NCBI GenBank assembly: GCA_021816845.1
Contig: JAKAWT010000001.1
Coordinates: 408,209 to 472,208 of the forward strand
Direction of reading: 5' to 3'
Length of the DNA: 64,000 nt
From: a bacterium
GTDB taxonomy: Bacteria > Patescibacteriota > Dojkabacteria > JAKAPS01 > JAJZLI01
Shown here one piece after another: positions 2,697 to 61,534 of the stretch. Position numbers and translations under genes: made by a program. The notes beneath the pieces were generated by a model that searched no databases, was not told the DNA's origin, and was given only the letters and a program-made list of their open reading frames with translations. The first letter of the stretch is position 1, and each line of letters begins with the position of its first letter.

Positions 2697-5373
2697 AAAA
2701 CTATTTTTAATAGACTCTAATGCACTTATATTTAGAGCTTATCATGCTATCCCTGTATTAAAATCTAAAGATAGAAATGTGAATGCTGTATATGGTTTCT
2801 TCCTTATATTTTTTAAAACACTCCAAAATTATAATCCAGATTATATAATTTGTACTTTTGATTCAGCTACTTCTTCTCAAATTAGAAAAGATAAATATTC
2901 TTGGTATAAAGCGAATAGAGCAGAAACCCCAGATGATCTTGTTGATCAATTTAGTTATGTTAAAGATATACTAAAAACTCTAAATATTAAAATTTATGAA
3001 GAGCCATATTATGAGGCTGATGATATTATTGCATCAATAATAGAAGATTTTAAAAATAAAGATGATATTGATATATATGTGATGACGGGTGATAAGGATT
3101 TATTACAACTCATATCTAAAAAAGTATCTCTGTTGATGCCTTTAAAATCATTTTCTGATCCAGTAGAAATAAATATTAACAATGTTAAAGACTATTTTGG
3201 TATGGAACCTAATATGGTTACCACATATAAAGGCCTTAGAGGAGACCCTTCTGATAACATCCCTGGGGTATCGGGGATAGGAGATAAAGGAGCAAAAGAT
3301 TTAGTAAGTGAATTTGGAAATATCTATTCCATATATAAGGCTATAGATAATATAAAACCAAGTATTGCAAAAAAATTGATAGATAATAAAAAATCTGCAC
3401 TAGAATCATTTGATGCAGCATCACTATATTCAAATATATCTTTAAAAGATTTAGATTTAGACAAGAGTACAGTACTTTTTGACCATAAATCCGTAATTTC
3501 CAAGTTAGAAGAATACCAATTTAAAAGTTTAATAAATAAATATTTCCCTGACTATGTGAACTTACAGAATATAGAGTCTGAAAAAATAGGGCGTCTTAAT
3601 GGGGTGATTATTGAGGATCTAAGTTCATTTAGTGATTTTGTACATAAATTGGAAAAAGTTAAGGAATTTGCCTTTCTATGCACGATATATGATAAAAACA
3701 AATTAAATGCAGGATTACTACCTTTTGGTATATCTATATATGTTGAAGGTGATAATCCTACTTTTATAGATTTTAATAATTCTGATATTATTGAATCAAA
3801 TGAGTTTGAAAATTTTAGGAGTATATTCAAAAATGAAAAGATTAGGAAAATAGGTTATGACATAAAAAAACAAATGCATTTTATGAATAATATTTCTACA
3901 AAGGTAAATGGTATATATTTTGATACGCAAATAGCATATTTCATAATAAAGAATAGAAATACATCTCTGAAAAATATAATATTGGATGTTTTTGACAAGA
4001 ATTTATATGATATAGATATCCTAGAGAATAGTAAGAATACTAAATTGGATAAAAAAACTATAGCTCTAATATATGATGATTATAGTAAATATATATATGA
4101 TTTGTATAAATATATTGATCAACAATTTAAGAAAGATAGTACAATATCAAATGTATTTTTTGAGATAGATATGCCATTAGTTCAAATTCTTTATATGATG
4201 GAGTGTGTAGGAATTAAGGTAAATAAGGGTTTTTTAGATAAATTATATGATAAGTTTGAATTAGAACTTAATGCTCTGGAGAAAGATATATATAAAATTG
4301 CAGGGACTGAGTTTAATATTTCCTCACCAACACAATTAGGAAATGTCCTCTTTAAGACTTTGTCTTTGAAATCCTCAGGTAAGAAGAAGAGTGGAATATT
4401 TAATACTGAAGATTCTGTATTACAATCTATAGAACAAGATAATAACATAGTACCTCTAATTAGAAGGTATAAAGAGGTAAGTAAGATAAAAAATACTTAT
4501 ACTAAAAACCTTGTTAAATTAACTGATTATTCAAGTAGGTTGCATACTAGATACAATATAACTGGTGCATCTACGGGAAGATTATCATCTTCTAACCCTA
4601 ATTTACAGAATATTCCTATCAGGACTGAAACTGGTAGGCAGATAAGAGAAGCTTTTGTTGCAGATAAGGGAAAAGTACTATTTTCATTTGACTATTCTCA
4701 AATAGAATTAAGAATAATGGCATATTATTCTGATGATCCAAGTATGAAATATGCCTTTTTGCACGATGAAGATATACATAAGTATACCGCATCAATTATA
4801 TTTCAAAAAAAGCTTGAAGAAGTTACTAGGGATGAAAGATCTGTTGCTAAAACAATTAATTTTGGAGTTATATATGGTATATCAAGTTTTGGTTTATCTA
4901 GGCAGCTTGGTATTTCACGATTAGAAGCTGATACTTTTATAAAGAATTATTTTGATACCTTTTCTAATATATCTAAATATTATGATTGGATTTCTAATTT
5001 TATTAAAGAACACAACTACGTAGAAACATTATATGGAAGGCGTCGATACTTTGATTATAATAAAGGATATGTTTTTGAAAAAAGAATTTTTAGAGAAGCA
5101 ATAAATATGCCTATTCAAGGTACTAGTGCGGATATTATTAAGATTGCCATGAGAAAAATAAGTAATGATATTATAGATAAGTATGATGCTAATATGATTC
5201 TGCAGATACATGATGAATTAATATTTGAAGTTAGTAAAAAGGTTGATTATAATTCTTTTGTTACTGATATAATTGATGCTATGGTAGAAGGATTCAAGTT
5301 AAATGTAGCTTTAAAAGTAGATGTAAAATATGGAGCTAACTGGAAAAATATGATTCTTTATAAAAAATCATGA
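2671..5373 (+). CDS. polA: DNA polymerase I (5'-3' exonuclease domain plus family A polymerase domain)
   Basis: N-terminal FEN-like domain. Polymerase motif A DYSQIELRIMAYYS, motif B RSVAKTINFGVIYG, motif C QIHDELIFE. Start overlaps the ftsH 3' end; exact start codon uncertain. Confidence 0.9.
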   Translation: MQGVKHQNKKLFLIDSNALIFRAYHAIPVLKSKDRNVNAVYGFFLIFFKTLQNYNPDYIICTFDSATSSQIRKDKYSWYKANRAETPDDLVDQFSYVKDILKTLNIKIYEEPYYEADDIIASIIEDFKNKDDIDIYVMTGDKDLLQLISKKVSLLMPLKSFSDPVEININNVKDYFGMEPNMVTTYKGLRGDPSDNIPGVSGIGDKGAKDLVSEFGNIYSIYKAIDNIKPSIAKKLIDNKKSALESFDAASLYSNISLKDLDLDKSTVLFDHKSVISKLEEYQFKSLINKYFPDYVNLQNIESEKIGRLNGVIIEDLSSFSDFVHKLEKVKEFAFLCTIYDKNKLNAGLLPFGISIYVEGDNPTFIDFNNSDIIESNEFENFRSIFKNEKIRKIGYDIKKQMHFMNNISTKVNGIYFDTQIAYFIIKNRNTSLKNIILDVFDKNLYDIDILENSKNTKLDKKTIALIYDDYSKYIYDLYKYIDQQFKKDSTISNVFFEIDMPLVQILYMMECVGIKVNKGFLDKLYDKFELELNALEKDIYKIAGTEFNISSPTQLGNVLFKTLSLKSSGKKKSGIFNTEDSVLQSIEQDNNIVPLIRRYKEVSKIKNTYTKNLVKLTDYSSRLHTRYNITGASTGRLSSSNPNLQNIPIRTETGRQIREAFVADKGKVLFSFDYSQIELRIMAYYSDDPSMKYAFLHDEDIHKYTASIIFQKKLEEVTRDERSVAKTINFGVIYGISSFGLSRQLGISRLEADTFIKNYFDTFSNISKYYDWISNFIKEHNYVETLYGRRRYFDYNKGYVFEKRIFREAINMPIQGTSADIIKIAMRKISNDIIDKYDANMILQIHDELIFEVSKKVDYNSFVTDIIDAMVEGFKLNVALKVDVKYGANWKNMILYKKS

Positions 5374-7109
5374 AAGATATAAGTTTTGATTCTATTTGTA
5401 GGGATCTTCTCAAAATAGAAAATACAAGGTCAAGGAACGAAAGAACTGAGTTATTGGCCAATCTTCTTAATCTTATTCCTAAAGAATTTATTAAAGAATT
5501 TATCTATATGTTGGATGGGAGGATAAATCCAAGATATGTTAAGTCTGATTTCAACATAGGGAGTAAAAGATTAATTATAGTATTTTCTAAAGTTTTTAAC
5601 ATTCCTCAAGAAGAAGTCTCCAGATCTTTTAGAGAAATTGGAGATATAGGATTATTATTTTTTAATCTTAAGAAAAATAAAAAAACAACACCTACTAGTC
5701 TAAAAGATATAATATTAATGCTAAATAAAATTACTCAAATACATGGTAAAAATGCTAATATATATAAAGAAGATGAACTGGTCATTTTGTATAGTAAAAT
5801 TACTCAATTAGAGGGAAGATTCCTATCTAGAATTTTTGTTGGAAATTTAAGGATGGGATTTAGTGATAAAACTATTTTGGATGCGTTATCTTTTTCTTTA
5901 AAGAATAACAAGTCAAAAAGAGCTGAAATAGAATCTGCATATGCAAAATGTTCAGATCTGGGTATAGTAGCAAGTAAAGTTCTTTTTGATTTTAGTTCAT
6001 TAACTTTATTATCTGTAATTCCTGGTATACCTTTGTTTGCAAAATTAGTAGAAAGATCTAAAAGTGTAGATGATGGTATAAAAAGATTTGGAAGTGTTAT
6101 GGTTCAGCCTAAATTTGATGGATTGAGATGTCAAGTTCATATCACAAGTAACGGAGAAATAAAATTTTATTCAAGAGAACTGTATGATATGACTGACATG
6201 TTCCCAGAAATCACAAAATCTTTTTTAAAAATTAAGAACATAAATAGTGCAATATTTGATTCTGAGGTTGTTGGTATTGATAATATTAATAATAAATATT
6301 TAGCATTTCAAGAGACAATGCAAAGGAAAAGGAAATATGGAATAAATTCTTTTATTACTGATATTCCTTTAAGTATATATATCTTTGATATTATGTATCT
6401 CAATGGGAAATCTCTTCTTGAAATTCCGTTATCTGAGAGATTAGTAATTCTAGAAGATATTTTTAGGAATTCTAGTTACACTAACATAAAAGTAGCAGAA
6501 ACTAAGAATTTTTCAGATCCAATCAAACTATATAATTACTTTAAAAAATGCCTATCTAATGGTTTGGAGGGTGTCGTTATAAAGAATCCGTCAAGTTTAT
6601 ATAAACCTGGAACAAGGAATTTTGATTGGTTAAAATTAAAAAGATCTTCCCTAAAGGGTGTTGTAGATACAATAGATGTTGTAATTATGGGGTATTTCAA
6701 AGGAGGAGGTTCGAGGTCTAAATTTGGTATAGGTGCAGTTTTAGTTGGTATATATAACAAGAATAAAAATAGAGTAGAATCTATATCTAAAGTAGGAAGT
6801 GGTTTTTCAGAAAAGCAACTTATTGCAATAAAAAAACAATTAGATATCATAAAAGAGAGGACTATGCCAGTTAGTTATTATGTCAAAAAGGAGATGTATC
6901 CTGATGTATGGGTTAGTCCAAAAATTGTAGTAGAAATAAGGTCTGATGAAATCACTAAGAGTCCCACACATACTGCTTGTGAAGATAGTAAAAATAGAGG
7001 TTTTGCATTAAGATTCCCTAGAATCATTAATGTTAGGAGTGATAAAAGTTTTTATGATACAACTGATGAAAAAGAGATAAAAAATCTTTATAAAATGCAA
7101 AAAGGATAG
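5370..7109 (+). CDS. ATP-dependent DNA ligase (DNA-binding, adenylation and OB domains)
   Basis: Adenylation motif I KFDGLRCQ (KxDGxR), motif IV EGVVIK, motif V WLKLK. ATGA start overlap with the polA stop. Confidence 0.85.
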   Translation: MKDISFDSICRDLLKIENTRSRNERTELLANLLNLIPKEFIKEFIYMLDGRINPRYVKSDFNIGSKRLIIVFSKVFNIPQEEVSRSFREIGDIGLLFFNLKKNKKTTPTSLKDIILMLNKITQIHGKNANIYKEDELVILYSKITQLEGRFLSRIFVGNLRMGFSDKTILDALSFSLKNNKSKRAEIESAYAKCSDLGIVASKVLFDFSSLTLLSVIPGIPLFAKLVERSKSVDDGIKRFGSVMVQPKFDGLRCQVHITSNGEIKFYSRELYDMTDMFPEITKSFLKIKNINSAIFDSEVVGIDNINNKYLAFQETMQRKRKYGINSFITDIPLSIYIFDIMYLNGKSLLEIPLSERLVILEDIFRNSSYTNIKVAETKNFSDPIKLYNYFKKCLSNGLEGVVIKNPSSLYKPGTRNFDWLKLKRSSLKGVVDTIDVVIMGYFKGGGSRSKFGIGAVLVGIYNKNKNRVESISKVGSGFSEKQLIAIKKQLDIIKERTMPVSYYVKKEMYPDVWVSPKIVVEIRSDEITKSPTHTACEDSKNRGFALRFPRIINVRSDKSFYDTTDEKEIKNLYKMQKG

Positions 7110-7134
7110 CCATAAATTGTTATCATGATATAAT

Positions 7135-8256
7135 ATGTCAATGCAAACAAAAAATATAAAAAAACAGAAAGTACTAGTTGCAATGTCTGGAGGTATAGAT
7201 AGTTCTGTAGCAGCATATCTTTTAAAAGAGCAAGGGTATGATCTTATAGGTATACATATGAAATTTTGGACAGAAGAGAGGAAACAAGAAGGTTTTCTTT
7301 CTGGAAAAGAAAATAAATGTTGCTCTATAGAAAGTGTAGAAGATGCTAGAGACGTTTGTAATCAACTTAATATACCCTTTTATGTTTTGAATTTTAGAGA
7401 TGACTTTAAAGATGATGTAGTAAAATATTTTATTAATGCATTTAAAGCTGGTCTGACTCCAAATCCCTGTGTTGTATGTAATAAAAAAATCAAATTTGGA
7501 CTTCTATATGAGAAACTAAAGGAATTTGATGCTGATTATGTTGCAACAGGACATTATGCAAGGATAGCAAAGATAAGTGGGAAATATTATTTACAAAGAG
7601 CTAAAGATATTTCAAAGGATCAATCATATTTCCTCCATAATATTGATAAGTCTGTATTATCGAAAACTATATTCCCTATAGGTGAGATTGATAGCAAGGA
7701 GCAAGTTAGAAAGATAGCATTTGATATCGGCCTTAGAATATCACAAAAGAAAGATTCTCAAGAAATATGTTTTATTCCAGGTAATGATTATAAAGGTTTT
7801 ATTGCAAGAAATGTTAGGCATGAATCACCCAAAGGAGACATAGTAGATATGCATGGAAACATTATAGGGACGCATGATGGTCTATTGTATTATACAATAG
7901 GACAAAGGAAAGGCATTAATACAAAGCTAATAACTCCATTATATGTAATAAAGAAAAATTTTAAAAATAATACTCTTATTGTAGGGAGCCTTGAAGATTG
8001 TACTATAAACAATATAAATCTTTTGAATGCTAATTTTTTAACAGATGACATAGATGACTATAAATATGATATGAAAATACAGATTAGATATAGAGGAAAA
8101 GATTTAGAGGTTGAAAAGTTTAATATTATAAATAATAATACACTAAATATAGTACTAAAAGATGGAGATGTTGGTATAGCTCCAGGTCAATTTGGTGTTT
8201 TATACAACAAGGATAATATAGTTCTTGGTGGAGGAGTGATTAATATAAAGGAGTAA
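7135..8256 (+). CDS. mnmA: tRNA-specific 2-thiouridylase MnmA
   Basis: PP-loop ATPase motif VAMSGGIDSSV; conserved cysteines CVVCN; length and domain order typical of MnmA. Confidence 0.9.
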   Translation: MSMQTKNIKKQKVLVAMSGGIDSSVAAYLLKEQGYDLIGIHMKFWTEERKQEGFLSGKENKCCSIESVEDARDVCNQLNIPFYVLNFRDDFKDDVVKYFINAFKAGLTPNPCVVCNKKIKFGLLYEKLKEFDADYVATGHYARIAKISGKYYLQRAKDISKDQSYFLHNIDKSVLSKTIFPIGEIDSKEQVRKIAFDIGLRISQKKDSQEICFIPGNDYKGFIARNVRHESPKGDIVDMHGNIIGTHDGLLYYTIGQRKGINTKLITPLYVIKKNFKNNTLIVGSLEDCTINNINLLNANFLTDDIDDYKYDMKIQIRYRGKDLEVEKFNIINNNTLNIVLKDGDVGIAPGQFGVLYNKDNIVLGGGVINIKE

Positions 8257-10749: not shown

Positions 10750-10829
10750 TATATTTATTTACAATGCTCTTTCAAAAGTGAATAGAAAAGTGGGTATTTA
10801 ATCGTGTATTTTGCATACTCAAGTAAAAC

Positions 10830-13924
<3,095 letters not shown>

Positions 13925-14002
13925 GTGTATGTAAAATTCGATTAAAGATCCACTATATTCTATTCACTTTTAAAAGAGCATTGATATCTGATATAATGTG
14001 TT

Positions 14003-15338: not shown

Positions 15339-17828
15339 ATGAATGATCAAGATAACAGTTTCACAAAATTATCAAATAATGCTGTAAAGGCTATAATGTC
15401 AGCATATGATTATGCATTGAATGTTAATTCCAAAGAATTAGATATAAGGTATTTGTTCCTTGCCATAATAAAGAATAAAGATAATATAGTTTCAAAGGCT
15501 ATGGAAAATATCAATTTTAGTTCTTCTATATCTTTTGAAAATATAGATGACGTTCCTTCTTCAAGCAAAAAGTCAAAAAAAGATAATAATATTGTTTTAT
15601 CAAACGATTTTAAAGAAGTTATCACAGGGGCATACTATCTGGCAAAAAAATTTAATCATGTTTATGTTGGGACAGAGCATCTATTCTTATCCATAATGAG
15701 GCAAGAAGATAATTCTTTTGTTAAAGAATTGAAGAAATATGGGATAGACTATGAATCTGCATATAACATTATCTTTAGTTATGGTAATTACCCACCAGGC
15801 GTCTTTCTTCAGAAGGATAACGAAAATAATTCTTTGATACCTGTAGAGAGTCAAAGGGCTATTATCAATACAATAGCTACAAATTTAAATAAAACTGTTA
15901 AGGAGAAAGGAGGTGTAGAAATAGTAGGGAGAAGTGAAGAGATTGATAGGATAATTCACATTTTGTCAAGGAAGAGTAAGAATAACCCTATTTTGATTGG
16001 TGAGGCGGGAGTAGGTAAAACATTTTTAGTAGAAGCTCTAGCTTCAAGAATTGTTAATAATAAAGTTCCGGAGAATCTTAGGAATTTTGAGATATGGAGC
16101 TTAGATATATCAAAATTAATGATGTCCACAGAGATGAGGGGAGAGTTGGAAGGTAAGATTAACATGGTTATGGAAGAAGTAAAATCAAGAAAAAACATAA
16201 TAATTTTTATTGATGAGATACATATGATCTTTAATTCTAGTGGGAATGCCTCTAATAATGATATAGCTAATATATTAAAACCTCATTTAACAAGTGAATA
16301 TCTAAGATGTATTGGCGCAACAACACTGTATGAATACCAAAGATATTTTGAAGGTGATGCTGCTCTAAACAGAAGATTTCTTCCTGTAAAGGTTAAAGAG
16401 TTATCTATTGATGATTCCGTCAAAGTTCTATCTGGTGTAAAACAAGATATAGAAAGTTTTCACAGTATTAAAATAAATGAAGAAGCTATACCAACATCAG
16501 TATATCTTGCTGATAGATTTATAGTAGATAGATTCTTACCTGATAAGGCTATAGATTTACTTGAAGAGGCTGCTACTGCTAAAAACTTGGAAGATAATAG
16601 ATACTCTAAGAAGATTTCTAATTTAAGGGATAGCATTAAAAATATTCAAGAAAAAAAAGAAAAATATCTAGAAGAACAAAAATATCTTCAATCCATGTAT
16701 TTGAGAGAAAAAGAAAGAGTATTAAATCAGGAGATGATTAATATAAAGAGTAATGATCTTTTTTATGGTAGAGAAGTTATGCCTGAAGATATAGTAAAGG
16801 TTGTTTCTAAATGGACAGATATACCAGTCTATAATATATCAAATAGCAATCTTGCACAAATGAAATCTATTGATAAAGAGATAAGGAAGGAAATTATAGG
16901 ACAAGACAATGCAGTTACTAGGGTAGTAGATATATTGAAAAGTGCTAGAGCAGGGTTTAGAGACGAGAGAAGACCTTTAGGCATATTTCTATTTTTAGGT
17001 CCTACAGGTGTTGGTAAAACAGAATTGGCGAAGCAGGTAGCTAATAAATATATGGGAAGCTCTAAGTCATTAATACAGTTAGATATGTCCGAGTATATGG
17101 AGGCACATAGTGTATCAAAGTTTATTGGTTCTCCTCCTGGATATGTTGGTTATCAAGAAGGGGGAAGACTTACTGAATCTGTGAAAAACAAACCTTATTC
17201 AGTTGTACTTTTTGATGAAATTGAAAAGGCCCATCCAGATGTTTTAAATATATTACTTCAAGTTATGGAAGAAGGTCATTTAACTGACAGTAGAGGTCGT
17301 TTTGTAAATTTTAAAAATACTATTATAATACTGACATCTAATATTGGATCTGATTTGATTGAAAATAGTAATATTCTTGGATTTGATATAGATATAGAGG
17401 ATGAAGAGGAATCAAGTGTTGTTAGTGAATATGAAAAAATGGAATCACAGGCATTAATGAAATTAAAGGAATATTTGTTGCCTGAGTTCCTTAACAGAAT
17501 AGATGATGTGATAATATTTAGATCTTTAAGCAAAAATGATGCCTTAAAGATAGTCAAAAAATTAGCTTATGAATCTAAAAATAAATTATCAAAGCTGAAT
17601 ATTAATATAGAGTACTCGGAGAATTTCTTAAGATATATTACAGACAGAGGCTTTAGTGAAGAATTCGGTGTAAGACAATTGAAAAGGATATTCAATAAGA
17701 ATACAGAAACAACATTGGCTAGCTATTTTATTGATAATCATTTTAATAATGATAGTCAAATCCAAAACAAATCAATCATAATGGATTATGATTTAAATAA
17801 TAAGGTTGTTTTGATAAATAGCAAATAA
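15339..17828 (+). CDS. clpC: Clp ATPase of the ClpC/ClpB family (two AAA+ domains, Clp_N repeats, short middle domain)
   Basis: Two Clp_N repeats. D1 Walker [10 protein letters not shown]2 Walker [13 protein letters not shown]. Linker of about 60 aa between D1 and D2, resembling ClpC more than ClpB. Confidence 0.9.
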
Positions 17829-17830
17829 AC

Positions 17831-17872
17831 AACTTATCCACATAAAATTTTACCCAAATAACTTATCCACAT
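17831..17872 (+). promoter_or_regulatory. Two direct repeats AACTTATCCACAT containing perfect DnaA-box consensus TTATCCACA
   Basis: Seen in sequence at 17834-17842 and 17863-17871, immediately after the clpC stop and 29 bp apart. Confidence 0.3.
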
Positions 17873-17936
17873 TTTTAAAAAAACATTGTTTCTATGATAT
17901 ATTTATTTACTGAATCTCCATTTTTAAATTATAGGC

Positions 17937-18100
17937 TTGACAAAAAAAAGATTATGGGATACAATAATGTTGTCCTTTAAAATTAGTTTTAATAATAAAT
18001 GTACTTCCCTGGGTCTGGTTAGTAAAAGAAGCTTTGCTGGTCCCATGGAAGTACATTTATTATTGGGATCGGTGGGGGGCAGTACCGATCCCTTTTTTTA
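17937..18100 (+). ncRNA. Promoter plus GC-rich structured RNA ending in an intrinsic terminator; candidate rplJ (L10) leader/attenuator or small RNA
   Basis: TTGACA(17937-17942)-17 nt-TACAAT promoter. A 12-bp inverted repeat AAATGTACTTCC/GGAAGTACATTT (17997-18057) enclosing a GC-rich loop. Hairpin GGGATCGGT-GGGGGGCAGT-ACCGATCCC followed by TTTTTTT (18064-18100). GC content stands out sharply from the AT-rich surroundings. Confidence 0.4.
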
Positions 18101-18288
18101 TTTAATCTTCAATTTGACTTACAACAATAATTACTTTATAATCTTAGATACTCAAAAGAGGTCAAAGACAATAGGATTTAGTCTGATATTTTGATTAAAT
18201 TAAAAATCTCCTATTTAGACTTTTGCAAGGTTTATTTGTCTTATTGGCTTCCTTTTGGAAGCTTTTTTAATATTGATAATTTTTTAAT

Positions 18289-18819
18289 ATGGCAATAAGA
18301 AAAGATAAGAAGAAGCTAATAATAGAGAAATATATTAACTATATAGATTCTAGTGAGTCATTGTTTTTTATAGATACTCAAGGTTTAGACATAAAAACAA
18401 TTAATATTTTAAAAGAAGAATTAATTCCAAATAGTGCAAAGTATATCCTTATAAAAAATACATTGTTTAGAAAAGCTTTGAAAGGCTCTTCTGGATATGT
18501 AGAAAATATTGATAAAGGATTATTTGGATATAATGCTCTGGTATTTTCAGAATCTGACTCAAATATCATTGCAAAAAAAATATTAGATTTTGGTTCTAAA
18601 AATGATGTTGAAATTAAGTTTGGAAGTCTTTATGGATCTTTTCTCTCTAAAGAGGACATTATTGGATTAAGTAAGGTGCCTTCAAAAGAACAAAGTATTG
18701 TTAACATAATATATATTATTAACGGGGGGCTTCAAAGATTACATTTTGTTTTAAATTATAACATTCAGATGCTTATAAATACTATTAATATTATAAAAGA
18801 ATCAAAGGAGGTGAAATAA
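18289..18819 (+). CDS. rplJ: 50S ribosomal protein L10
   Basis: L10-like N-terminal region; position immediately upstream of rplL. Confidence 0.8.
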   Translation: MAIRKDKKKLIIEKYINYIDSSESLFFIDTQGLDIKTINILKEELIPNSAKYILIKNTLFRKALKGSSGYVENIDKGLFGYNALVFSESDSNIIAKKILDFGSKNDVEIKFGSLYGSFLSKEDIIGLSKVPSKEQSIVNIIYIINGGLQRLHFVLNYNIQMLINTINIIKESKEVK

Positions 18820-18823
18820 TAAT

Positions 18824-19225
18824 ATGGATGAGAAAAAAATGAATTCTATTGTAGAAAGTATAGAGAAAATGAATGTATTGGAAGTTTCTCAGTTAGTAAA
18901 AATTTTAGAGGAGAAATTTGGAGTACAAGCATCAGGGGTTATGCCTATGGGCAACTCGATGCCAGTTGGCCAGGCTACAGAATCTAATGTTGGAGATGAA
19001 AAAGAAGAAAAAACCTCTTTTGATGTTATATTAAAGTCAACTGGAGATAAGAAGATTGAAGTTATTAAAGCATTAAGAGTTATTAGTCCTGAACTTGGTT
19101 TAACAGAAGCAAAAGCTATTGCTGAGTCAGCTCCTAAAACAATTAAAGAATCTGTATCCAAAGAGGATGCTGATGAGATGAAAAAATCTCTTGAAGCTGC
19201 TGGAGCAACAGTTGAACTTAAATAA
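18824..19225 (+). CDS. rplL: 50S ribosomal protein L7/L12
   Basis: N-terminal dimerisation helix, Ala/Gly/Pro-rich hinge, and C-terminal domain ending ...EAAGATVELK. Confidence 0.9.
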   Translation: MDEKKMNSIVESIEKMNVLEVSQLVKILEEKFGVQASGVMPMGNSMPVGQATESNVGDEKEEKTSFDVILKSTGDKKIEVIKALRVISPELGLTEAKAIAESAPKTIKESVSKEDADEMKKSLEAAGATVELK

Positions 19226-19258
19226 AATATTATATTTTAATTTAAACTAAACAATACT

Positions 19259-19282
19259 AAGAGAGAGGTTGTCCTCTCTCTT
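19259..19282. terminator. Bidirectional rho-independent terminator between convergent rplL and the Wzy_C-like gene
   Basis: Perfect hairpin AAGAGAGAGG-TTGT-CCTCTCTCTT flanked by T-rich sequence on both strands. Confidence 0.6.
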
Positions 19283-20634
19283 TAGTTGTTATGTAGTATT
19301 GATTTTTTTGTAGCTTTTTCCAGTATTGCTAAAAATGTACCCATGATTATCCAATTGAAAAATAGGTCAAAATAAGAATGGAATAAATTTGCTATAAGTA
19401 GAGCTAATAAACCAGACATAAATGCACTGATTATAATAAAATCAATACTTTTTCTATTCTTAGTTATTATTTCTAATTTCTTCCAGAAAATACTAAAATA
19501 AGTTATAAGGAAAAACATATAACTTAAAAATCCCACTATACCTATCTCTGAAAGCCATAATGTAAATAATGGTGGTGTATCAATATTGTTGTAATAAAAT
19601 GGTATAAAAGGCTTTATGTATAATCCAAAATAATATGTAAAAGTTCCTAATCCTGTTCCAAATATTGGGAATTTCTTAAAGATATTAATGCTTGATTGCA
19701 AAAGTAATATATGTGTATCAAAAGAATATTTTTGTAAAGAGTATATATATGGAAATATTATTACACTTGATATCACAGCTATGATAAAATATGCCTCCAG
19801 GATATATAAAAGGTGCTTATTTTTATAAGTTTTATAATAGTATAACAATAAAAGAAAAAATGCTATGGTTATACCAATTAATGAACTTTTAGAAAAAGTT
19901 ATTATGAAAAAGAAAAATACTATTATAGATAGTAAGTTTAATACTAATAATAGTTTTTTGGTTTTTGAGGTTAGATTTTTACGATTTATAAAATATAGTA
20001 TTAACAATATAGGTATAAATATTGCAATGAATCCCGCAGTAGTATTTACATCATTAAATGTGGAATCTGGTCTTAGTATACTGAAGTGACCTATATGCAG
20101 TATAAATGTACTTGGGTTTATAGTTGTTGAGTGCAATATATTATGAAGGTCTAATGTATCAAATTTATAAAATAAATATCCGAAAAACTGTAATATTCCA
20201 TAGAAAGAAACCAGTAATATAGTTATAAAAAATGTTACTAATATAGTCATTGTATTTTTATAATAAAGTGTATATATGTAACATATTAAGAACAGTAATA
20301 TTGATAAAACAATATAAATTGTTGATTTGAAAGATAAAAATTTATCTATAGAAAAGAAATCACTTATCAATATAGTTACAGGTATAGCAATTAGGCTTAT
20401 TTTCAAATATTTATTCATTGTTTTAGCATATTCAATTATACTATGATAATTAATCCATATTGACATTATAATAACTGGGAAAAACATTGCTATTGGATCT
20501 AATGTGAATCCTATGTAAGAATTAAATCTTTCAAGTGGCATAAGGAGTATTAATATAGGGACTAGAAGCTTGGGATAATTCAATGCTATGAATCCAAGTA
20601 TTAGATATATAATTATTATAGCTATGATGATCAT
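19282..20634 (-). CDS. Polytopic membrane protein of the O-antigen ligase / Wzy_C-like superfamily (possible O-glycan ligase)
   Basis: At least 10 predicted TM helices. C-terminal segment FPIFGTGLGTF ... LWLSEIGIVGFLSYMFFL resembles the GxGxG / E-G-hydrophobic block of WaaL/Wzy_C/PglL-type proteins. Stop 1 nt downstream of the mreB-paralog stop (same strand). Confidence 0.45.
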   Translation of the reverse strand: MIIIAIIIIYLILGFIALNYPKLLVPILILLMPLERFNSYIGFTLDPIAMFFPVIIMSIWINYHSIIEYAKTMNKYLKISLIAIPVTILISDFFSIDKFLSFKSTIYIVLSILLFLICYIYTLYYKNTMTILVTFFITILLVSFYGILQFFGYLFYKFDTLDLHNILHSTTINPSTFILHIGHFSILRPDSTFNDVNTTAGFIAIFIPILLILYFINRKNLTSKTKKLLLVLNLLSIIVFFFFIITFSKSSLIGITIAFFLLLLYYYKTYKNKHLLYILEAYFIIAVISSVIIFPYIYSLQKYSFDTHILLLQSSINIFKKFPIFGTGLGTFTYYFGLYIKPFIPFYYNNIDTPPLFTLWLSEIGIVGFLSYMFFLITYFSIFWKKLEIITKNRKSIDFIIISAFMSGLLALLIANLFHSYFDLFFNWIIMGTFLAILEKATKKSILHNN

Positions 20635-23414: not shown

Positions 23415-24020
23415 ATGATTAAATACGAACAAACATTAGTTTTAATAAAGCACGATGGAGTAGCTAGGGGATTAATTGGAGAAATAATAAGTAGATTTGA
23501 GAGAGTAGGTTTGAAAGTTGTTGGTATGAAATTTATTATTCCTTCTATAGATGTTGCGACAAAACATTATCCATCTAGTGAAGAATGGCTACTAAATGTT
23601 GGAAATAGGGTTATAAAAGAGTATACAGATAATGGTATTGATATTAAACAAGTTTTCAATACATTAGATCCTCAAAAAATAGGTGAAGTAATTAAATCTT
23701 GGAATGTTGAATACCTTACATTCGGTCCAGTTCTAGCTATTGTATTGGAAGGTCCTGGATCAGTTAAATTAGTTAGAAAAATGGTTGGTGCTACAAATCC
23801 ATCAGAATCAGCTCCCGGAACAATCAGGGGTGATTATACTTGGGATAGTGGAGAAGTCTCCAATAAACATAATCGTCCATTCTATAATTTGATTCATGCA
23901 TCAAGTTCAGTAGATGATGCAAGGACAGAGATAAAATTATGGTTCAGTAAATCAGAAATTGTAGAATATGAGTTAAGTAACCACAACTCAATGGGTTGGC
24001 ATGGCAAGTTAAAGAAATAA
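23415..24020 (+). CDS. ndk: Nucleoside diphosphate kinase with internal insertions (201 aa)
   Basis: N-terminal ERTLVLIKHDGV..GLIGEIISRFE, GATNP..SAPGTIRGD, and active-site NLIHASSS block. About 50 extra residues compared with the canonical enzyme of about 150 aa. Confidence 0.85.
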   Translation: MIKYEQTLVLIKHDGVARGLIGEIISRFERVGLKVVGMKFIIPSIDVATKHYPSSEEWLLNVGNRVIKEYTDNGIDIKQVFNTLDPQKIGEVIKSWNVEYLTFGPVLAIVLEGPGSVKLVRKMVGATNPSESAPGTIRGDYTWDSGEVSNKHNRPFYNLIHASSSVDDARTEIKLWFSKSEIVEYELSNHNSMGWHGKLKK

Positions 24021-24126
24021 TTTTATCAGATATGTAATATGTATTGATAACTAATGATATGGATTATTATCAGTCTATGTTAGTATATTGATAAATAATT
24101 GAATTTATACTGTTTTTGTGGAATTA

Positions 24127-25389
24127 TTATATACTTTCAGTTAAAGTTGCTAAGAAATCGCTATTATTTTTTGTCTTTTTTAGTCTATCTAATAATAACT
24201 CATAATTTTCTCCATTATTTTTCAATGTGTCTAACATTTTTCTTATTCTCCAAGATTGACTTAAAACTTCTGAGTCTAGTAATTTTTCTTCATGTCTAGT
24301 TCCTGATTTAACTATCTCTATTGCTGGATAAAGTCTTCTATCAGCTAATCTTCTATCTAGATGTAATTCCATATTCCCTGTGCCTTTAAATTCTTCAAAT
24401 ACCAAATCATCCATTCTACTTCCAGTATCAATAAGTGCAGTAGCTATTATGGTGAGGCTGCCAAATTCTTCTAAATTTCTTGCAGAACCAAAGAACCTTT
24501 TGGGAGGATATAATGCTACTGGATCAAACCCACCAGACAAAGTTCTCCCGGATGGGGGTACTATTATGTTATAGGCTCTAGCGAGTCTTGTAAGGCTATC
24601 CATTAATATAACTACATCATTGCCTTCTTCTACTAATCTTTTTGCTCGACCAAGTGCTATTTCTGCAACTTTAATCTGATTTTCTGGTAGATCATCAAAA
24701 TTAGAAGCATATACTTCTCCTTTTGTAGATTTACGTATATCTGTAACTTCTTCAGGTCTCTCTCCTATCAGTAAAATCATCAGATGTATTTCTGGGTGAT
24801 TATGTGTTATACCATCTGCTATATCTTTTAATAATGTTGTCTTACCAGACTTTGGTGGGGATACAATCATACCTCTTTGTCCTTTGCCAATTGGAGATAA
24901 AAGATCTATTACCCTATTAGAAATAGGGAATTGACCTATTTCTAGTTTTATTTGTTCTAATGGAAATATTGGAGTAAGTCTTTCAAATGCTATCCTTTTT
25001 GCTGCATTATCAGGTTCTCTAGAGTTTATTTTATCAATTTTTAATAAACCTAGATACCGTTCATTTTCCTTAGGTAATCTAGCTTTTCCAACAATATAAT
25101 CACCTTGTCTTAAATCAAATTTCTTTATTTGAGAACCAGAGACATAAACATCATTCTCATTTGGTAGCAATGTGTATGATCTAAGTACTCCTCTAACACC
25201 ATCATTTATGATCTCTAATATACCTTCAACACTTATAGCTTCATCTTTATCTACATCTTTTAGTATCTTAAATATAAGATCTCTTTTGTTTAGTTCTTGA
25301 AAATCAGTGAGTTTTTCTTTTTCAGCAATTATACGTAAATCTGCTAAACTTTTTGAATCTAAGTTCTGTAAAGAATACTGTTCTTTCAT
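24127..25389 (-). CDS. rho: Transcription termination factor Rho
   Basis: N-terminal Rho_N, OB/CSD fold, Walker A SPPKSGKTTLLKDIA, RecA-like domain; length 420 aa. Confidence 0.9.
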   Translation of the reverse strand: MKEQYSLQNLDSKSLADLRIIAEKEKLTDFQELNKRDLIFKILKDVDKDEAISVEGILEIINDGVRGVLRSYTLLPNENDVYVSGSQIKKFDLRQGDYIVGKARLPKENERYLGLLKIDKINSREPDNAAKRIAFERLTPIFPLEQIKLEIGQFPISNRVIDLLSPIGKGQRGMIVSPPKSGKTTLLKDIADGITHNHPEIHLMILLIGERPEEVTDIRKSTKGEVYASNFDDLPENQIKVAEIALGRAKRLVEEGNDVVILMDSLTRLARAYNIIVPPSGRTLSGGFDPVALYPPKRFFGSARNLEEFGSLTIIATALIDTGSRMDDLVFEEFKGTGNMELHLDRRLADRRLYPAIEIVKSGTRHEEKLLDSEVLSQSWRIRKMLDTLKNNGENYELLLDRLKKTKNNSDFLATLTESI

Positions 25390-25506
25390 ATATTGTAATT
25401 ATAAGAAATAAGAAAATTAGTAAAATGCATGATTAAGAAATTTATTTTAGAGTTTCAAGATAGATGTCAATAGGATAATATAACAAAATAAAAAAAATAG
25501 CAAGGA

Positions 25507-26196
25507 TTATAATCTAGTAATTAACTCTTCTGACTTTATTTTTATGGATGGCCCCATGGTTGGACATATATATATACTTTTAAATATTGTATTCTCTGGT
25601 TTTTGTACAACACTTATTATCGATTTTATCAACAATAAAGTATTTTCTAGAAGTTCTTCTTTTGTATTATTTACATTTCCTATGATAGTGTGTATTACAC
25701 CTGTTTGGTCTGATTTATAATCAAATTTCCCGCCCATATAACTATTTATAGCTTCATCTATATTGTCTGTAATTGTACCTTTTTTTGGATTAGGCATAAG
25801 ATCCTTTGGCCCTAATATTTTTCCTAAAACTGCTATTTTGGACATTACATTAGGTGTAGCTATTATAACATCAAAATCCGACCATCCTTGATTAATCTTA
25901 TCTATATATTCTTCAAGTCCTATGTAATCATATTTTTTTGCAGTTTCAGGTTTTATATCTTTTGAATCTGTTAATAAAAGAACCCTTTTTTTCTCACCAA
26001 CTTTGTTTTTATAGTTCACACTTCCTCTTAATACCTGTTTTGTATTTTTTTGATTTATGTTTAATGCTATGTGTATTTCTACAGATCCTGGAAATTTGGA
26101 TAAAGACAATTTTTTTACTTCTTCAAAAGAATTATTAAAAGATATATTATTATCCATTTTTTCTATAATTTTTTTATATTTCTTACCTCTTTTCAT
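25507..26196 (-). CDS. rplA: 50S ribosomal protein L1
   Basis: Conserved L1 blocks (IIATPNVMSKIAVLGKILGPKDLMPNPK...). Synteny nusG-rplK-rplA. Confidence 0.9.
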   Translation of the reverse strand: MKRGKKYKKIIEKMDNNISFNNSFEEVKKLSLSKFPGSVEIHIALNINQKNTKQVLRGSVNYKNKVGEKKRVLLLTDSKDIKPETAKKYDYIGLEEYIDKINQGWSDFDVIIATPNVMSKIAVLGKILGPKDLMPNPKKGTITDNIDEAINSYMGGKFDYKSDQTGVIHTIIGNVNNTKEELLENTLLLIKSIISVVQKPENTIFKSIYICPTMGPSIKIKSEELITRL

Positions 26197-26201
26197 AGTT
26201 T

Positions 26202-26630
26202 TTAATTTTCAGATACTTCTACTCCCATATTTCTTGCTGTTCCTATAATAATTTTTTTAGCTGCATCTAAATTATTAGTATTAAGGTCTGGCATTTTAGT
26301 CTTTGCTATATCTTCAATCTGTGATTGCGTTAATTTACCAACCTTTTCTTTTAATGATTGGCTTGATCCTTTTGGTATATTTAATGCCATTTTTATTAAA
26401 ATAGCGGTAGGAGGGGTTTTTATAATAAATGAGAATGATCTGTCTTCAAATACATCTATAACTACTGGAAAAATTAATTCACCTTTATCTTTAGTTTGAT
26501 TATTGAATTGGTTACAAAAATCCATAATATTTATACCATGTTGTCCTAGAGCAGGTCCTATAGGAGGAGCAGGGTTTGCTTGTCCAGCCTTTATTTGTAA
26601 TTTTATTTGTGTAATTAATTTCTTAGCCAT
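26202..26630 (-). CDS. rplK: 50S ribosomal protein L11
   Basis: N-terminus ...[28 protein letters not shown] typical of L11. Confidence 0.9.
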
Positions 26631-27199
26631 TATATTAATTTTATTTGCATTAAATCTAATTCTACAGGTGTTTCTCTTCCGAATATTGAAATAAGTATTT
26701 TTACTTTGCTTTTTTCTTCACTTATATCACTTATTTTCCCATTAAAATCTTTAAAAGCACCATCTGTAACTGTTACACTATCTCCAACATTAAATGATGT
26801 TTGTATTGCAGGAGTATCAAGTTCCATGAATTTCAATATTGCATTGACTTCATTATCGTTTAGTGGTGTAGGTGTAGCACTTGTTGGTCCTACAAAACCA
26901 GTAACTCCCTCAGTATCTCTTATTATTGGCCAAGTCTCTCTATTAAGTTCCATTCTAATTAATATATACCCAGGAAGTATTTTCTCTTTTATCTTTCTCT
27001 TTTTGCCATCTGCTATTACAGTTTTATTCTGAGTAGGAATAACTATTTCATCCAAATATCTGTCTACACCTGCTGTTTCTGCTCTTTGCTTGATTAATAT
27101 AGAAATCTTATTTTCATGTCCAGTAAAAACATTGATGGCATACCACTTCATATTTTCAGTGTTTTTTTGTTTATTCTTTTTTATTTTTATCTTATCCAT
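26630..27199 (-). CDS. nusG: Transcription termination/antitermination factor NusG
   Basis: NGN domain ([14 protein letters not shown]...) and C-terminal KOW motif ([18 protein letters not shown]). Synteny with secE. Confidence 0.9.
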
Positions 27200-47488: not shown

Positions 47489-49009
47489 ATGGGGAGAGAG
47501 ATACTGTACCAAAAATATAGACCTAGAAAATTTAAAGATATAATAGGTCAAGATCATATAGTCAAAGTGCTCCAAAATGAAGTATTAAAAAATAATATAG
47601 CTAATGGATATCTATTTTTTGGTCCTCGTGGTCTAGGCAAAACCTCTATTGCAAGAATATTTGCGAACGCTATAAATTGTAGTAATCCTCAAAACGGAGA
47701 AATCTGTGGAGAATGTAGTGAATGTATGGCTATACAAGAGGGATCATTTATAGATCTTATAGAAATTGATGCAGCTTCTAACAGGGGGATTGACGATATA
47801 AGGGATATAAGAAATAGGACTTATTTCACCCCAGTTATGGGTAGGTTTAAAGTATATATAATAGATGAAGTTCATATGCTTACCCCTGAAGCTTTTAATG
47901 GGCTTTTGAAAATATTAGAAGAGCCTCCTTCTAGTGTTGTATTTATTTTAGCAACTACAGAAGTTCATAAAGTACCTAAAACCATAGTGTCAAGATGCCA
48001 AAGATTTGATTTTAATCCTGCAAGTAGAGAAGATATTCTAAAACAACTGAACTATATAATAAAGGAAGAAAATTTAAGAATAAAGGATGAAATTAGAGAT
48101 TTGATAGTTGCAAAATCAGAGGGTAGTTTTAGGGATTCTCTAACTAATATGCAGAAAATCATTAATGTTAGAGATGATATGCCGTATGAAGAAGCACTTA
48201 GTATATTGGGCGTGTCAGGAGAGAGAGAAATTCTAGATCTATGGAATAATATATTTGAGGGTAATATAGACTCAGAGATAGAGAGGATAGAGAAAAGTTC
48301 TATAAATATAGCTACTTTCATAAAAGATTCATTGGATATTTTTAGAAAAGTTCTGATTTATAAAGTTACTAAAGAGGATAATGATATCTCAGGATTAAAT
48401 GTTTCGAATTATTCAGCTGGTGATATAGTAAATATTATCAATATACTTATAAAAGCTTTAGACAATCTTCGAATTTCTTCTTTACCTATATTATCCTTAG
48501 AAATTGCTCTTGTAGAGGTTATTAATGCCTTAAAGATCAATAATTCTACTAGAGTACAATCAAAGCCCATTGATGAGTCTGTAGATAAACCATTGATGTC
48601 TAAGCAAGACAGAAGGAAAAAAAATCATATAGATGATGTAGAAGGTCAAGATGAAAACTTAGAAGAAGTAATAAAGTCAAGATGGATAGATATAATAGAA
48701 GGCACTAAATCCTTTAATCATCATATGAGTGGTTTTTTATCGAGATCTTCTTTTGAGATTAATAAAAATAATTTTACAATTATTGTGCCATTCCAGTTTT
48801 ATAAAGATATGCTAATGGTTGAGAAAAGTAGGGAACATATGGTAAATATTTTGAAAAATATGTTTAATATTAACTTCAAAATTAATGTCAAAGTTCAGAA
48901 AGATGTTACTCCAATATTATCACCATTAAATGATTCATCACTTAATGGTACAGAGGAGACTGTTATAAGTGAAAGTGATCTTAAAGATGTTTTCGATATA
49001 GAAGACTAA
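47489..49009 (+). CDS. dnaX: DNA polymerase III subunit gamma/tau
   Basis: AAA+ Walker A GPRGLGKTSIA, zinc module CxxCxxC, SRC motif (VSRCQRF). Confidence 0.9.
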   Translation: MGREILYQKYRPRKFKDIIGQDHIVKVLQNEVLKNNIANGYLFFGPRGLGKTSIARIFANAINCSNPQNGEICGECSECMAIQEGSFIDLIEIDAASNRGIDDIRDIRNRTYFTPVMGRFKVYIIDEVHMLTPEAFNGLLKILEEPPSSVVFILATTEVHKVPKTIVSRCQRFDFNPASREDILKQLNYIIKEENLRIKDEIRDLIVAKSEGSFRDSLTNMQKIINVRDDMPYEEALSILGVSGEREILDLWNNIFEGNIDSEIERIEKSSINIATFIKDSLDIFRKVLIYKVTKEDNDISGLNVSNYSAGDIVNIINILIKALDNLRISSLPILSLEIALVEVINALKINNSTRVQSKPIDESVDKPLMSKQDRRKKNHIDDVEGQDENLEEVIKSRWIDIIEGTKSFNHHMSGFLSRSSFEINKNNFTIIVPFQFYKDMLMVEKSREHMVNILKNMFNINFKINVKVQKDVTPILSPLNDSSLNGTEETVISESDLKDVFDIED

Positions 49010-49114
49010 AAATCCGATAAAAATACTATTAATATTCAACTTTTTATATTTTTAATATATACAAATATATGTTAATATCATAAATATTATATTTATTTTA
49101 TTGGAGGAATAATT

Positions 49115-49420
49115 ATGGCTAATCCTTTTTCACAAGCTAGAGATTTAATGAAGCTTCAAGGTGAGGTTAAGAAGATGCAGAAGGAAATGGAAGGTAAAAA
49201 ATTTATGGGTGAATCTAATAAAGGTTTTGTTAAGATTTATCTTAATGGTACAGGGGAGATTATAGATATAGTTATAGATGACATACTTATTGGTATGGAG
49301 AGAAAAATGGATCTTATATCTCATATAAAAGATGCTTATAAAGATGCTCAAAAGAAAATGTCTAAAGATATGGCAAAAGATATGGACCTATCAAAACTAA
49401 AGAATTTTATGGGTGTTTGA
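49115..49420 (+). CDS. ybaB: Nucleoid-associated protein YbaB/EbfC
   Basis: About 100 aa, with N-terminal MKLQGEVKKMQKE and a central GESNKGFVKIYLNGTGEIIDI block; classical dnaX-ybaB-recR context. Confidence 0.85.
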   Translation: MANPFSQARDLMKLQGEVKKMQKEMEGKKFMGESNKGFVKIYLNGTGEIIDIVIDDILIGMERKMDLISHIKDAYKDAQKKMSKDMAKDMDLSKLKNFMGV

Positions 49421-49423
49421 ATT

Positions 49424-50038
49424 ATGGATCAAGATCCTATTTTATCATTACAAAAAGAATTTGAAAAGATGCCAAGTATTGGAGCAAAGTCAGCTTTGAG
49501 AATGGTGTATTTTTATATATATAATAAAAATAATATTCCTTTCTTAGAGAAGGCCTTAAACGATGTTTATCTTAATATAGAAAATTGCAATATTTGTCAT
49601 ATGATTACACATAAAGATAAGAATCCTTGTGTTTATTGTTCTGATTCGAAACGTAATAAATACCAAATCTGTGTTGTAGAGAATACTACTGATTTATTAT
49701 CAATAGAAAAATCTAATTCATACAAAGGACTGTATCATGTCCTTGGGGGGGTAATATCGCCTTTAAGTAATATCAAAGAAGAAGATTTATATATTAAAGA
49801 TCTTTTAAGGAGAGTAAAATCGATCAATGAAGAAGATAGTATAGAAATAATACTTGCAACAAATTTTACTGTTGAGGGTGATGCTACAGCTACATATATA
49901 AAGAATTTATTGAAAGATATACACAACGTACACTTTACTAGACTAGCATCTGGTTTACCAGCAGGTTCTGATTTAGAATACGTTGATTCATATACAATAG
50001 GTAGAGCTATTGATAAAAGAAGTGATTATGGTATTTAA
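49424..50038 (+). CDS. recR: Recombination protein RecR
   Basis: HhH N-terminus (LPSIGAKSALR), C4 zinc finger CNICHMITHKDKNPCVYC, Toprim domain. Confidence 0.9.
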   Translation: MDQDPILSLQKEFEKMPSIGAKSALRMVYFYIYNKNNIPFLEKALNDVYLNIENCNICHMITHKDKNPCVYCSDSKRNKYQICVVENTTDLLSIEKSNSYKGLYHVLGGVISPLSNIKEEDLYIKDLLRRVKSINEEDSIEIILATNFTVEGDATATYIKNLLKDIHNVHFTRLASGLPAGSDLEYVDSYTIGRAIDKRSDYGI

Positions 50039-55182: not shown

Positions 55183-55591
55183 TATATGGTGGAGATGGTG
55201 GGGATCGAACCCACATCCAATGAAGTTATTATATATATGGAATTACAAGTTTACCAATTTAAAATTTTAAAGATAATTATTCAAAAATTAGCAAACAATA
55301 ATTACCCTGATACTGTTCTTAATGTCATACTAAATCGTAGGTATCATAATTTAATATCTAGCTTATCTTTGTTTAAACAAAATAATAAACTCAAGCAGGT
55401 TTACTATTTCATCCTAAATGTACTGTTTAGGCAACATTTAGATAGAAAGCAGGTTTTGCAAATATAGAGTTAACTACTGTGCTAACCTTACTTTTTATAT
55501 TGTTTACATTTGTGTTTTTAGAAATTTTTTAAAAGATTTCTAAATCTTTACTTGCCATTTATATAACAGAATTCCTTGTCAAGACCGATCA
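55183..55591 (-). ncRNA. ssrA: tmRNA (transfer-messenger RNA, SsrA), about 409 nt with encoded CCA
   Basis: Read by hand on the minus strand. 5' end GGGGATG pairs with the 3' acceptor strand CATCTCC and includes a G3:U70 pair, the alanine identity element. T-arm GTGGG-TTCGATC-CCCAC followed by ACCA. Internal reading frame GCA AAA CCT GCT TTC TAT CTA AAT GTT GCC TAA gives the tag AKPAFYLNVA. The stop codon sits in the loop of a hairpin CTAAATGT...ACATTTAG, as in helix 5 of tmRNAs. Confidence 0.8.
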
Positions 55592-61511: not shown

Positions 61512-61534
61512 TTTTAATTTATATTGTATTTATT

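Follow-up and report, generated by a model that had tools for sequence, protein, structure and literature searches.

Between a gene for a ClpC-type ATPase (clpC) and the gene for ribosomal protein L10 (rplJ), the 64,000-nt stretch of DNA analysed here (the window) contains a GC-rich element for which the original prediction offered two readings, namely the L10(L12)4 autoregulatory leader or attenuator of rplJ, or an independent small RNA. Which of the two is encoded here, and what such an RNA might do, is the question raised by this locus. The independent small RNA is the reading that held: the element possesses its own conserved promoter and terminator, its helices covary, and it lies downstream of clpC or radA regardless of the gene that follows. 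It is very probable that an RNA gene with the structure described below exists. The fuller reading, in which positions 17972-18099 encode a stand-alone structured RNA of about 129 nt that represents a family outside Rfam in WS6/Dojkabacteria-related Patescibacteria and acts in trans by binding protein, is assigned a probability of about 0.5.

Layout and structure of the RNA gene

The promoters, hairpins, terminator and adjoining elements described below are located on the + strand. The clpC gene (15339-17828) is the upstream neighbour of the element, and rplJ-rplL (encoding L10 and L7/L12; 18289-19225, with the rplJ ATG at 18289) are the downstream neighbours, so that these gene calls place the element where the original prediction had put it. 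The other predicted landmarks are all found as well, including a distance of 189 nt from the T-run to the rplJ ATG (about 190 nt had been claimed), a GC content of up to 0.46 at the element versus 0.20-0.30 in its flanks, a near-consensus promoter (TTGACA-17-TACAAT, 17937-17965) matching 11 of 12 consensus positions, and a strong hairpin, GGGATCGGT/ACCGATCCC (18065-18092), that runs into seven T residues (18093-18099). The perfect inverted repeat is present as well, but the predicted 12 bp understated its length, which amounts to 18 perfect pairs. The order of features is promoter, a 19-nt unpaired stretch, hairpin P1, hairpin P3 directly abutting P1, and the T-run.

The promoter region (17930-17965) comprises a -35 hexamer TTGACA (17937-17942), a 17-nt spacer and a -10 hexamer TACAAT (17960-17965), and is the joint best match in a consensus scan of positions 17000-19500. 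A TATRGG motif immediately precedes each hexamer (17930-17935 and 17953-17958); hexamers and motifs are retained in all loci, and their combination is unique within the window. Promoter identity among loci is 69-98%, where the spacers are 37-74% identical. Transcription probably starts at the G located 6-7 nt past the -10 hexamer (around 17972), followed by a predicted single-stranded 5' tail (17972-17990) that is unpaired in the minimum-free-energy fold. The tail motif reads GUCCUUUAAAA in the window and GUUCUUU in most relatives, and a G(U/C)UCUUU-like start is found in most variants. At the other end, the U-run (18093-18099) completes an intrinsic terminator, at which the RNA of about 129 nt is predicted to end. 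A terminator scan detected seven terminator-like sites in the region versus 0.5 expected. The U-run is kept in most relatives and is weak in locus L029 only (CCCUACUUUC), and both the promoter and the terminator hairpin are conserved together with the RNA at every locus. The near-consensus sigma-70-type promoter would drive transcription, and the P3 hairpin with its U-run would end it. Because the element has a promoter and a terminator of its own, the RNA would be released as a discrete molecule, separate from the rplJ mRNA.

The predicted 129-nt transcript has a folding energy of -55.1 kcal/mol, compared with -29.5 +/- 3.6 kcal/mol for dinucleotide shuffles (z = -7.1; none of 200 shuffles folds as well). 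Hairpin P1 (17991-18064) stands on the 18-bp perfect basal stem (17991-18008 with 18047-18064), and its inverted-repeat arms reach 23 nt at 96% complementarity. Its conserved core (18007-18048) begins with CC/GG pairs at the base, followed by a first mismatch (18009/18046; C.U in the window, and C.U, C.A or C.C among variants), a 4-bp helix UGGG/CCCA (18010-18013 with 18042-18045) that is replaced by AGAG/CUCU in L031 and L029 as a compensatory change, and a second mismatch (18014/18041; U.U in the window, G.A or U-A in relatives). Above it lies an inner 5-bp helix, CUGGU/GCUGG (18015-18019 with 18036-18040), containing U.G, G.U and U.G pairs. Across variants this helix is CUGGU/RCUGG and nearly invariant, with one U.G pair that never changes and with G.U to A-U at 18017 and U.G to U-A at 18019/18036 as its changes. 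A small asymmetric loop with extra bases on the 3' side follows above this second helix. The apex (18020-18035) is UAGUAAAAGAAGCUUU in the window and in most lineages. L031 has CGCGUACAAC in its place and L029 has CGCGUACA together with an additional hairpin, yet both keep the helix beneath. Since the apex varies between lineages, that part at least is no universal recognition site. A sarcin-ricin-like AGUA/GAA reading of the apex was rejected, as it is not conserved in L031 or L029, and so was its derivation from a displaced fragment of 23S rRNA, since neither the GTPase-associated region (12060) nor the sarcin-ricin loop (13642) of the 23S is disrupted.

Hairpin P3 (18065-18092), which doubles as the stem of the intrinsic terminator, consists of a 9-bp stem, GGGAUCGGU/ACCGAUCCC, with a loop of 10 nt. 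All lineages found share the same loop sequence, GGGGCAGU (18076-18083), and the P3 motif occurs only with this RNA in the approximately 300 kb of locus DNA searched. In L029 the loop is kept despite a U-run too poor for a good terminator, suggesting that P3 has a function beyond termination. In most relatives an A/U-rich hairpin, P2, lies between P1 and P3, and distant relatives have longer linkers. In the clade of the window, the 5' strand of P2 precedes P1, and P1 is thereby enclosed by the P2 stem in a single hairpin that is based on the 18-bp stem and abuts P3; elsewhere P1 and P2 are arranged in tandem, not nested. Such free rearrangement of the linker fits two separately constrained or recognised modules on a variable tether. 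Pairing between the 5' tail (UUCUUU) and the apex loop (AAAGAA), or between GUUC and GGGC of the P3 loop, can be drawn in many variants, except in L028; as these pairings show no covariation, they are speculation.

Two perfect DnaA-box 9-mers, TTATCCACA (17834-17842 and 17863-17871), are located between the clpC stop codon and the RNA promoter, outside the predicted transcript, and account for two of just three exact copies in the window. Both boxes are invariant in aligned relatives and are also present in L050, L051 and L028, but absent from L029 and L031. The replication origin (oriC) at which they might hint was rejected, as there are two boxes only and no GC-skew switch was found. An 85-aa open reading frame starting with TTG (17937-18194) spans the element, and one metagenome-assembled genome (MAG) carries an annotated 75-aa hypothetical protein at this place. 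A protein-coding gene was discarded, because neither frame is kept across relatives, which differ by indels of 30-37 nt.

Conservation and covariation in Patescibacteria

Homologous loci were collected from contigs reached via L10 and ClpC homologues and from one 20-mer scan of GTDB genomes. They comprise 13 distinct full-length variants (a count that leaves out L007, an assembly artefact) from Patescibacteria MAGs with ClpC identities down to 42%, and the RNA is always single copy. The nearest named ClpC relatives are a Patescibacteria group bacterium (61%) and Candidatus Dojkabacteria (approximately 43-45%), the latter corresponding to candidate division WS6. The window comes from an AT-rich CPR bacterium, whose L10 protein is encoded identically in MAG GCA_027425395.1; among the public DNA samples in which the contig occurs are SRR13205817 and ERZ27237490. 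Further homologues were found neither by an L10-based genome scan nor by a degenerate R/Y pattern in metagenome contigs, and a 19-mer search returned only chance matches in coding sequence, encoding LVKEAL. The element and the P3 motif are absent from phage and viral collections, which rules out a phage element.

In close relatives, L005 and L006 (L10 83-86% identical), the stretch from promoter to terminator differs at only 2-3 bases, all near its start, against a background of diverging flanks. Five loci with ClpC identities of about 62% (L010, L013, L016, L051 and L027) keep the gene order rpsA-clpC-RNA-rplJ-rplL-wzy-mreB. Among relatives at this ClpC distance, identity is 95-100% for the P1 core and P3, compared with 37-44% for the upstream spacer and 27-39% for the DNA past the terminator. 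Overall, the clpC-RNA-rplJ arrangement was observed in relatives with ClpC identities of approximately 62-90%. The RNA is located between clpC and rho in L050 (ClpC 62%), between radA and rho in L028 (ClpC 47%) and L031 (ClpC 42%), and 5' of a GNAT acetyltransferase gene followed by rho in L029, from a Candidatus Dojkabacteria MAG (ClpC 45%). Thus, the RNA precedes rplJ, rho or the GNAT gene depending on the lineage, indicating indifference to the downstream gene, and in the window and its relatives it keeps to the rRNA-rpsA-clpC(-radA) side. In the window genome, rho lies on the other strand 6 kb away (24127-25389), with nusG-rplK-rplA at 27199-25507; this gene order looks like the product of an inversion with a breakpoint just past the RNA terminator.

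Directly past the terminator, a consensus-like promoter for the next gene is found in the window, L050, L028 and L031, whereas no clear second promoter is seen before the next gene in L029. In the window this promoter (TTGACT-17-TATAAT, 18114-18142; 11 of 12 consensus positions) lies outside the RNA and would serve rplJ-rplL. It is followed by a second structured segment outside the RNA (18144-18279), which is a candidate for the actual L10 leader. Its full-length alignment to the Rfam L10 leader family (RF00557) is weak, with 14.4 bits and an E value of 6.4 against a gathering score of 44; its consensus structure has six compensatory pairs among rplJ-adjacent loci, and it is absent where rho follows the RNA.

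Comparison of the window element with its counterparts at related loci shows that the element is conserved and that its stems covary. For this analysis, P1 was represented by 10 distinct sequences and P3 by 6 distinct versions, with the fold of the window RNA as reference. In the P1 alignment, 94.4% of cells form standard pairs, compared with 81.5% in shuffles and 30-47% in controls with slid partners, and compensatory changes occur at 11 of 21 helix pairs, although several of them are common to L029 and L031 and may represent one event. The P1 covariation score is 0.432 versus 0.171 for shuffles, and none of 500 shuffles reaches 0.432. RNAalifold independently predicts the same P1 structure with 13 compensatory pairs. 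The basal P1 stem covaries freely, in contrast to the near-invariant core above it. P3 is 100% paired in its 6 versions, among which one compensatory change (G-C to A-U) and two changes to G.U are seen. With a covariance model of P1, the + strand scores 62-91 bits and the - strand 25-40 bits, and exactly one copy per locus is found in the approximately 300 kb of locus DNA searched. The G.U pairs that are invariant or change by transition only further point to a constraint on the + strand RNA. A promoter and a terminator of its own, together with a conserved and covarying structure, are among the features that characterise a stand-alone small RNA gene, and they are observed at this locus.

Alternative readings and known RNA families

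In its architecture of promoter, covarying hairpins and U-tailed terminator, and in its occurrence in one bacterial group, the RNA resembles classical terminator-ended small RNAs and orphan structured RNAs. Examples of the latter are raiA and OLE, which were known from comparative genomics only when first described. It differs from both in sharing no common sequence or structure with them in Rfam scans and in having an invariant terminator loop. This architecture, together with the invariance of loop sequences, would also suit a base-pairing small RNA in which the P1 apex (AAAAGAA), the P3 loop GGGGCAGU or the 5' tail (GUUCUUU) serves as a seed for mRNAs in trans. However, conservation that extends to ClpC identities of 42-47% and is strongest in paired regions is unusual for base-pairing small RNAs, and some lineages have an entirely different P1 apex. 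In addition, complements of the two loops occur at chance level in the window (13 versus 10.6 and 13 versus 11.8 expected). A base-pairing role is judged unlikely. Protein binding is favoured over an antisense role on account of the conservation in paired regions and one loop, its deep reach, and the lack of enrichment of loop complements.

The succession of a conserved folded domain and a terminator upstream of genes would equally be expected of a cis-acting attenuator or riboswitch, with P1 as the sensor and P3 as a regulated terminator that decides whether transcription continues into the next gene. The distant loci provide some evidence for such a switch. The L029 linker GGCACUGCC pairs with GGCAGUGCC of P3, similar linker-P3 pairing is possible in L028 and L031, the minimum-free-energy folds of all three pair the linker with P3, and L029 is the locus that lacks a clear second promoter; in these longer forms the predicted pairing could represent a regulated terminator. 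The same idea does not suit the form in the window, nor does it account for the variety of downstream genes. P1 abuts P3 on the 18-bp perfect stem in the window, L005 and L006, so that the linker is absent and no antiterminator fold is available. Moreover, the downstream gene is inconsistent in function (rplJ-rplL, rho or GNAT acetyltransferase), and a consensus-like promoter lies past the terminator in the window, L050, L028 and L031. The terminator loop is invariant, unlike in ordinary expression platforms, and no riboswitch family matches the element in the window, L028 or L029. A cis-acting switch is accordingly judged improbable, though possible as a regulated terminator in the longer forms.

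With respect to known families, the covariance-model search called for by the original prediction (L10_leader, 6S, SRP and the whole of Rfam) yielded no match to the element. At the gathering score, no family of Rfam 15 matches the element in the window or in 10 related loci. At E<=10, the segments searched (window 17966-18102, L028 13930-14140 and L029 6640-6885) return microRNA-type hairpin noise only, and these lists contain no SRP, 6S, RNase P, Y RNA, L10_leader, riboswitch or known small RNA; a scan of the whole window at E<=0.5 likewise assigns no family to the element. The scans thus agree with the original prediction, which had been unable to match SRP or RNase P motifs by eye. A likeness, presumed by eye, between GCUGGUCC and the stem through which Y RNAs bind Ro was dismissed because the pairing scheme does not fit, and no bacterial family of any type appears for the element in the Rfam scans. 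The searchable literature contains nothing on this RNA, nor any relevant report on SRP, 6S or new RNA motifs in CPR/Patescibacteria.

One known RNA with which the element can be compared is the bacterial small signal recognition particle RNA (4.5S, RF00169), of which it could be a highly divergent version with P1 as the Ffh-binding hairpin. Both are single-copy, deeply conserved RNAs with a long irregular hairpin and their own promoter, and the size and the reduced genome would fit. No SRP RNA is found elsewhere in the window, which covers approximately 10% of the genome and includes the region beside dnaX-ybaB-recR. The 5' half of the P1 top, GGUCUGGUUAGUAAAAGAAGC, also looks by eye like GGUCAGGUCCGGAAGGAAGC of E. 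coli domain IV, a likeness that serves as a lead only. SRP domain IV has a GNRA tetraloop over a symmetric loop (AGG/AGCA) and an asymmetric loop whose 5' strand is the longer one. In P1, by comparison, the apex is AGUAAAAGAAGC in most variants, and it is precisely the SRP-like stretch for which L031 and L029 have CGCGUACAAC instead, with neither a GNRA loop nor AGCA. The GG of this stretch pairs ordinarily with the 3' strand (G.U changing to A-U at 18017), leaving no non-canonical symmetric loop, and the internal loop carries its extra bases in the 3' strand, the reverse of the SRP arrangement. The invariant hairpin P3 is an extra 3' element with no SRP counterpart, P1 obtains no covariance-model score (RF00169/RF01854), and no SRP family, whether small, large or other, appears at E<=10 in the 137-nt search space of the window or in the L028 and L029 segments. 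An SRP identity is therefore considered quite improbable.

Very improbable is a reading that places the function either in the DNA itself, as an operator or recombination site made up of the palindromes, or in a 6S-like RNA that binds RNA polymerase. As DNA, P3 resembles a dimeric operator in having two inverted 9-bp arms around a 10-bp spacer, and DnaA boxes lie nearby. However, many conserved G.U pairs would correspond to A.C mismatches in the complementary strand or in a cruciform of the DNA, the asymmetric P3 loop sequence is invariant, and the element is framed by a promoter and a U-run. As for 6S RNA (RF00013), the element shares with it a small size, presumed abundance, a stand-alone gene and a housekeeping-type promoter, and 6S RNAs are poorly detected by sequence models. 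Its fold, however, is a row of two to four hairpins behind an unpaired 5' tail, as opposed to a rod whose 5' and 3' ends pair and whose centre holds a large bubble, and RF00013 does not match the element in the window, L028 or L029.

Finally, although the element is a structured RNA in non-coding DNA 5' of rplJ-rplL, as L10 leaders are, the original prediction of an L10(L12)4 autoregulatory leader or attenuator is almost certainly incorrect, since RF00557 has no match within 17937-18100 at the gathering score or at E<=10 and aligns weakly only to the separate covarying leader downstream, a terminator and a second promoter split the RNA from rplJ, and the same RNA occurs without rplJ, before rho or GNAT, in four other lineages (L050, L028, L031 and L029).

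Proposed function and biological implications

Having weighed these alternatives, we regard the RNA as a new family, confined so far to WS6/Dojkabacteria-related Patescibacteria, of a kind of feature already known, the stand-alone structured small RNAs of bacteria. It may act in trans as a stable protein-binding RNA, that is, as a ribonucleoprotein component, a scaffold or a sequestering RNA. Two invariant modules would provide the recognition surfaces, namely the inner part of P1, with its 4-bp helix, its G.U-rich 5-bp helix and their mismatches, and P3 with GGGGCAGU. The pattern of conservation, from which this mechanism is argued, makes protein binding a plausible proposal at slightly less than even odds; in this proposal the RNA would be stable and its partners would be proteins. 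More tentatively, the RNA might be a housekeeping subunit or scaffold of a ribonucleoprotein with two protein-recognition modules, encoded beside rRNA-rpsA-clpC(-radA) and kept through genome reduction, and it might even replace a canonical universal RNA, for example SRP RNA, in these lineages.

CPR/Patescibacteria have some of the smallest bacterial genomes, with very little non-coding DNA. In genomes so poor in non-coding sequence, the persistence of an unchanged core at ClpC identities of 42-62% suggests that the RNA is likely important to these bacteria. For annotation, an RNA gene takes the place of the 75-aa hypothetical protein called in one MAG, and the RNA is separated from the true rplJ leader. 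Collectively, the analysis adds an RNA family for which a structure model, the invariant modules and a conserved genomic position can be given. If this RNA indeed forms part of a ribonucleoprotein or stands in for a universal RNA, the finding would have consequences for how the housekeeping of translation, secretion or transcription is arranged in these uncultured episymbionts.

The rplJ leader and a possible rearrangement downstream of the RNA

The structured RNA of about 129 nt encoded between clpC and rplJ had been proposed in the original prediction as a possible L10 autoregulatory leader. At 18114-18279 (+), a second near-consensus promoter precedes an rplJ leader with a structure of its own, and this leader, which shows covariation among relatives in which rplJ is adjacent, aligns over the full length of the Rfam L10_leader model (RF00557), albeit weakly. 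The L10 autoregulatory leader is likely to be this rplJ leader rather than the RNA itself. In the window, nusG-rplK-rplA (27199-25507, -) is separated from rplJ-rplL, and rho (24127-25389, -) and ndk (23415-24020, +) are located about 6 kb away, whereas the related locus L050 has the order clpC-RNA-rho-ndk (5871-7873). The split of the ribosomal protein genes, together with this difference in rho-ndk placement (23415-27199 in the window), suggests an inversion in the clade formed by the window and its close relatives, with one putative breakpoint just past the RNA terminator.

Annotation of the RNA and of other features

Two irregularities affect the RNA in related contigs. L007 (1-378) starts inside the hairpin and carries a reverse-complement copy of sequence from the terminator hairpin (P3) and the long hairpin (P1), an assembly artefact induced by the palindrome. 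The 75-aa hypothetical ORF that a gene caller placed across the RNA in L004 (2679-2906) is probably spurious.

In Firmicutes, the SRP RNA gene is usually found immediately upstream of dnaX. The window carries a dnaX-ybaB-recR cluster (47489-50038, +), in which hisS adjoins dnaX directly and the 105-nt dnaX-ybaB gap is AT-rich and unstructured; no SRP RNA was detected across the whole window. The tmRNA (55187-55596, -; GC 0.28) is very AT-rich, with a modest score of 78 bits and long insertions relative to the model. The 23S rRNA (10821-13927, +) spans 3107 nt versus 2925 model positions and contains several insertions, including those near 11116-11212 and 11492-11535. The 23S gene of the relative L028 reaches approximately 3.9 kb, and LAGLIDADG homing-endonuclease ORFs within it (L028 6486-7080) indicate an intron. 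In addition, a gene at 5370-7109 (+), next to that for DNA polymerase I, encodes an archaeal/eukaryotic-type ATP-dependent DNA ligase comprising N, adenylation and C domains. The region 61511-63415 (~1.9 kb) contains only short ORFs (51-92 aa, all on the - strand), with no ORF of at least 100 aa and no Rfam match.

Motifs at and upstream of the RNA promoter

Downstream of the clpC stop and ahead of the RNA promoter lie two perfect DnaA-box 9-mers, TTATCCACA (17834-17842 and 17863-17871, +; spacing 29 bp), accounting for two of the three exact copies in the whole window. Both are kept throughout the window clade and also in L050, L051 and L028; the pair is not conserved in L029 or L031. The site (17834-17871) shows no GC-skew switch and is therefore probably not oriC; the pair may instead place a promoter under DnaA control or serve to titrate DnaA. 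Two copies of a TATRGG motif (17930-17935 and 17953-17958, +) stand directly 5' of the -35 and -10 hexamers. Every lineage retains them, L029 and L031 among the rest, and their combination with the hexamers is unique to this promoter within the window. These motifs may constitute a regulator site or mark a special promoter class.
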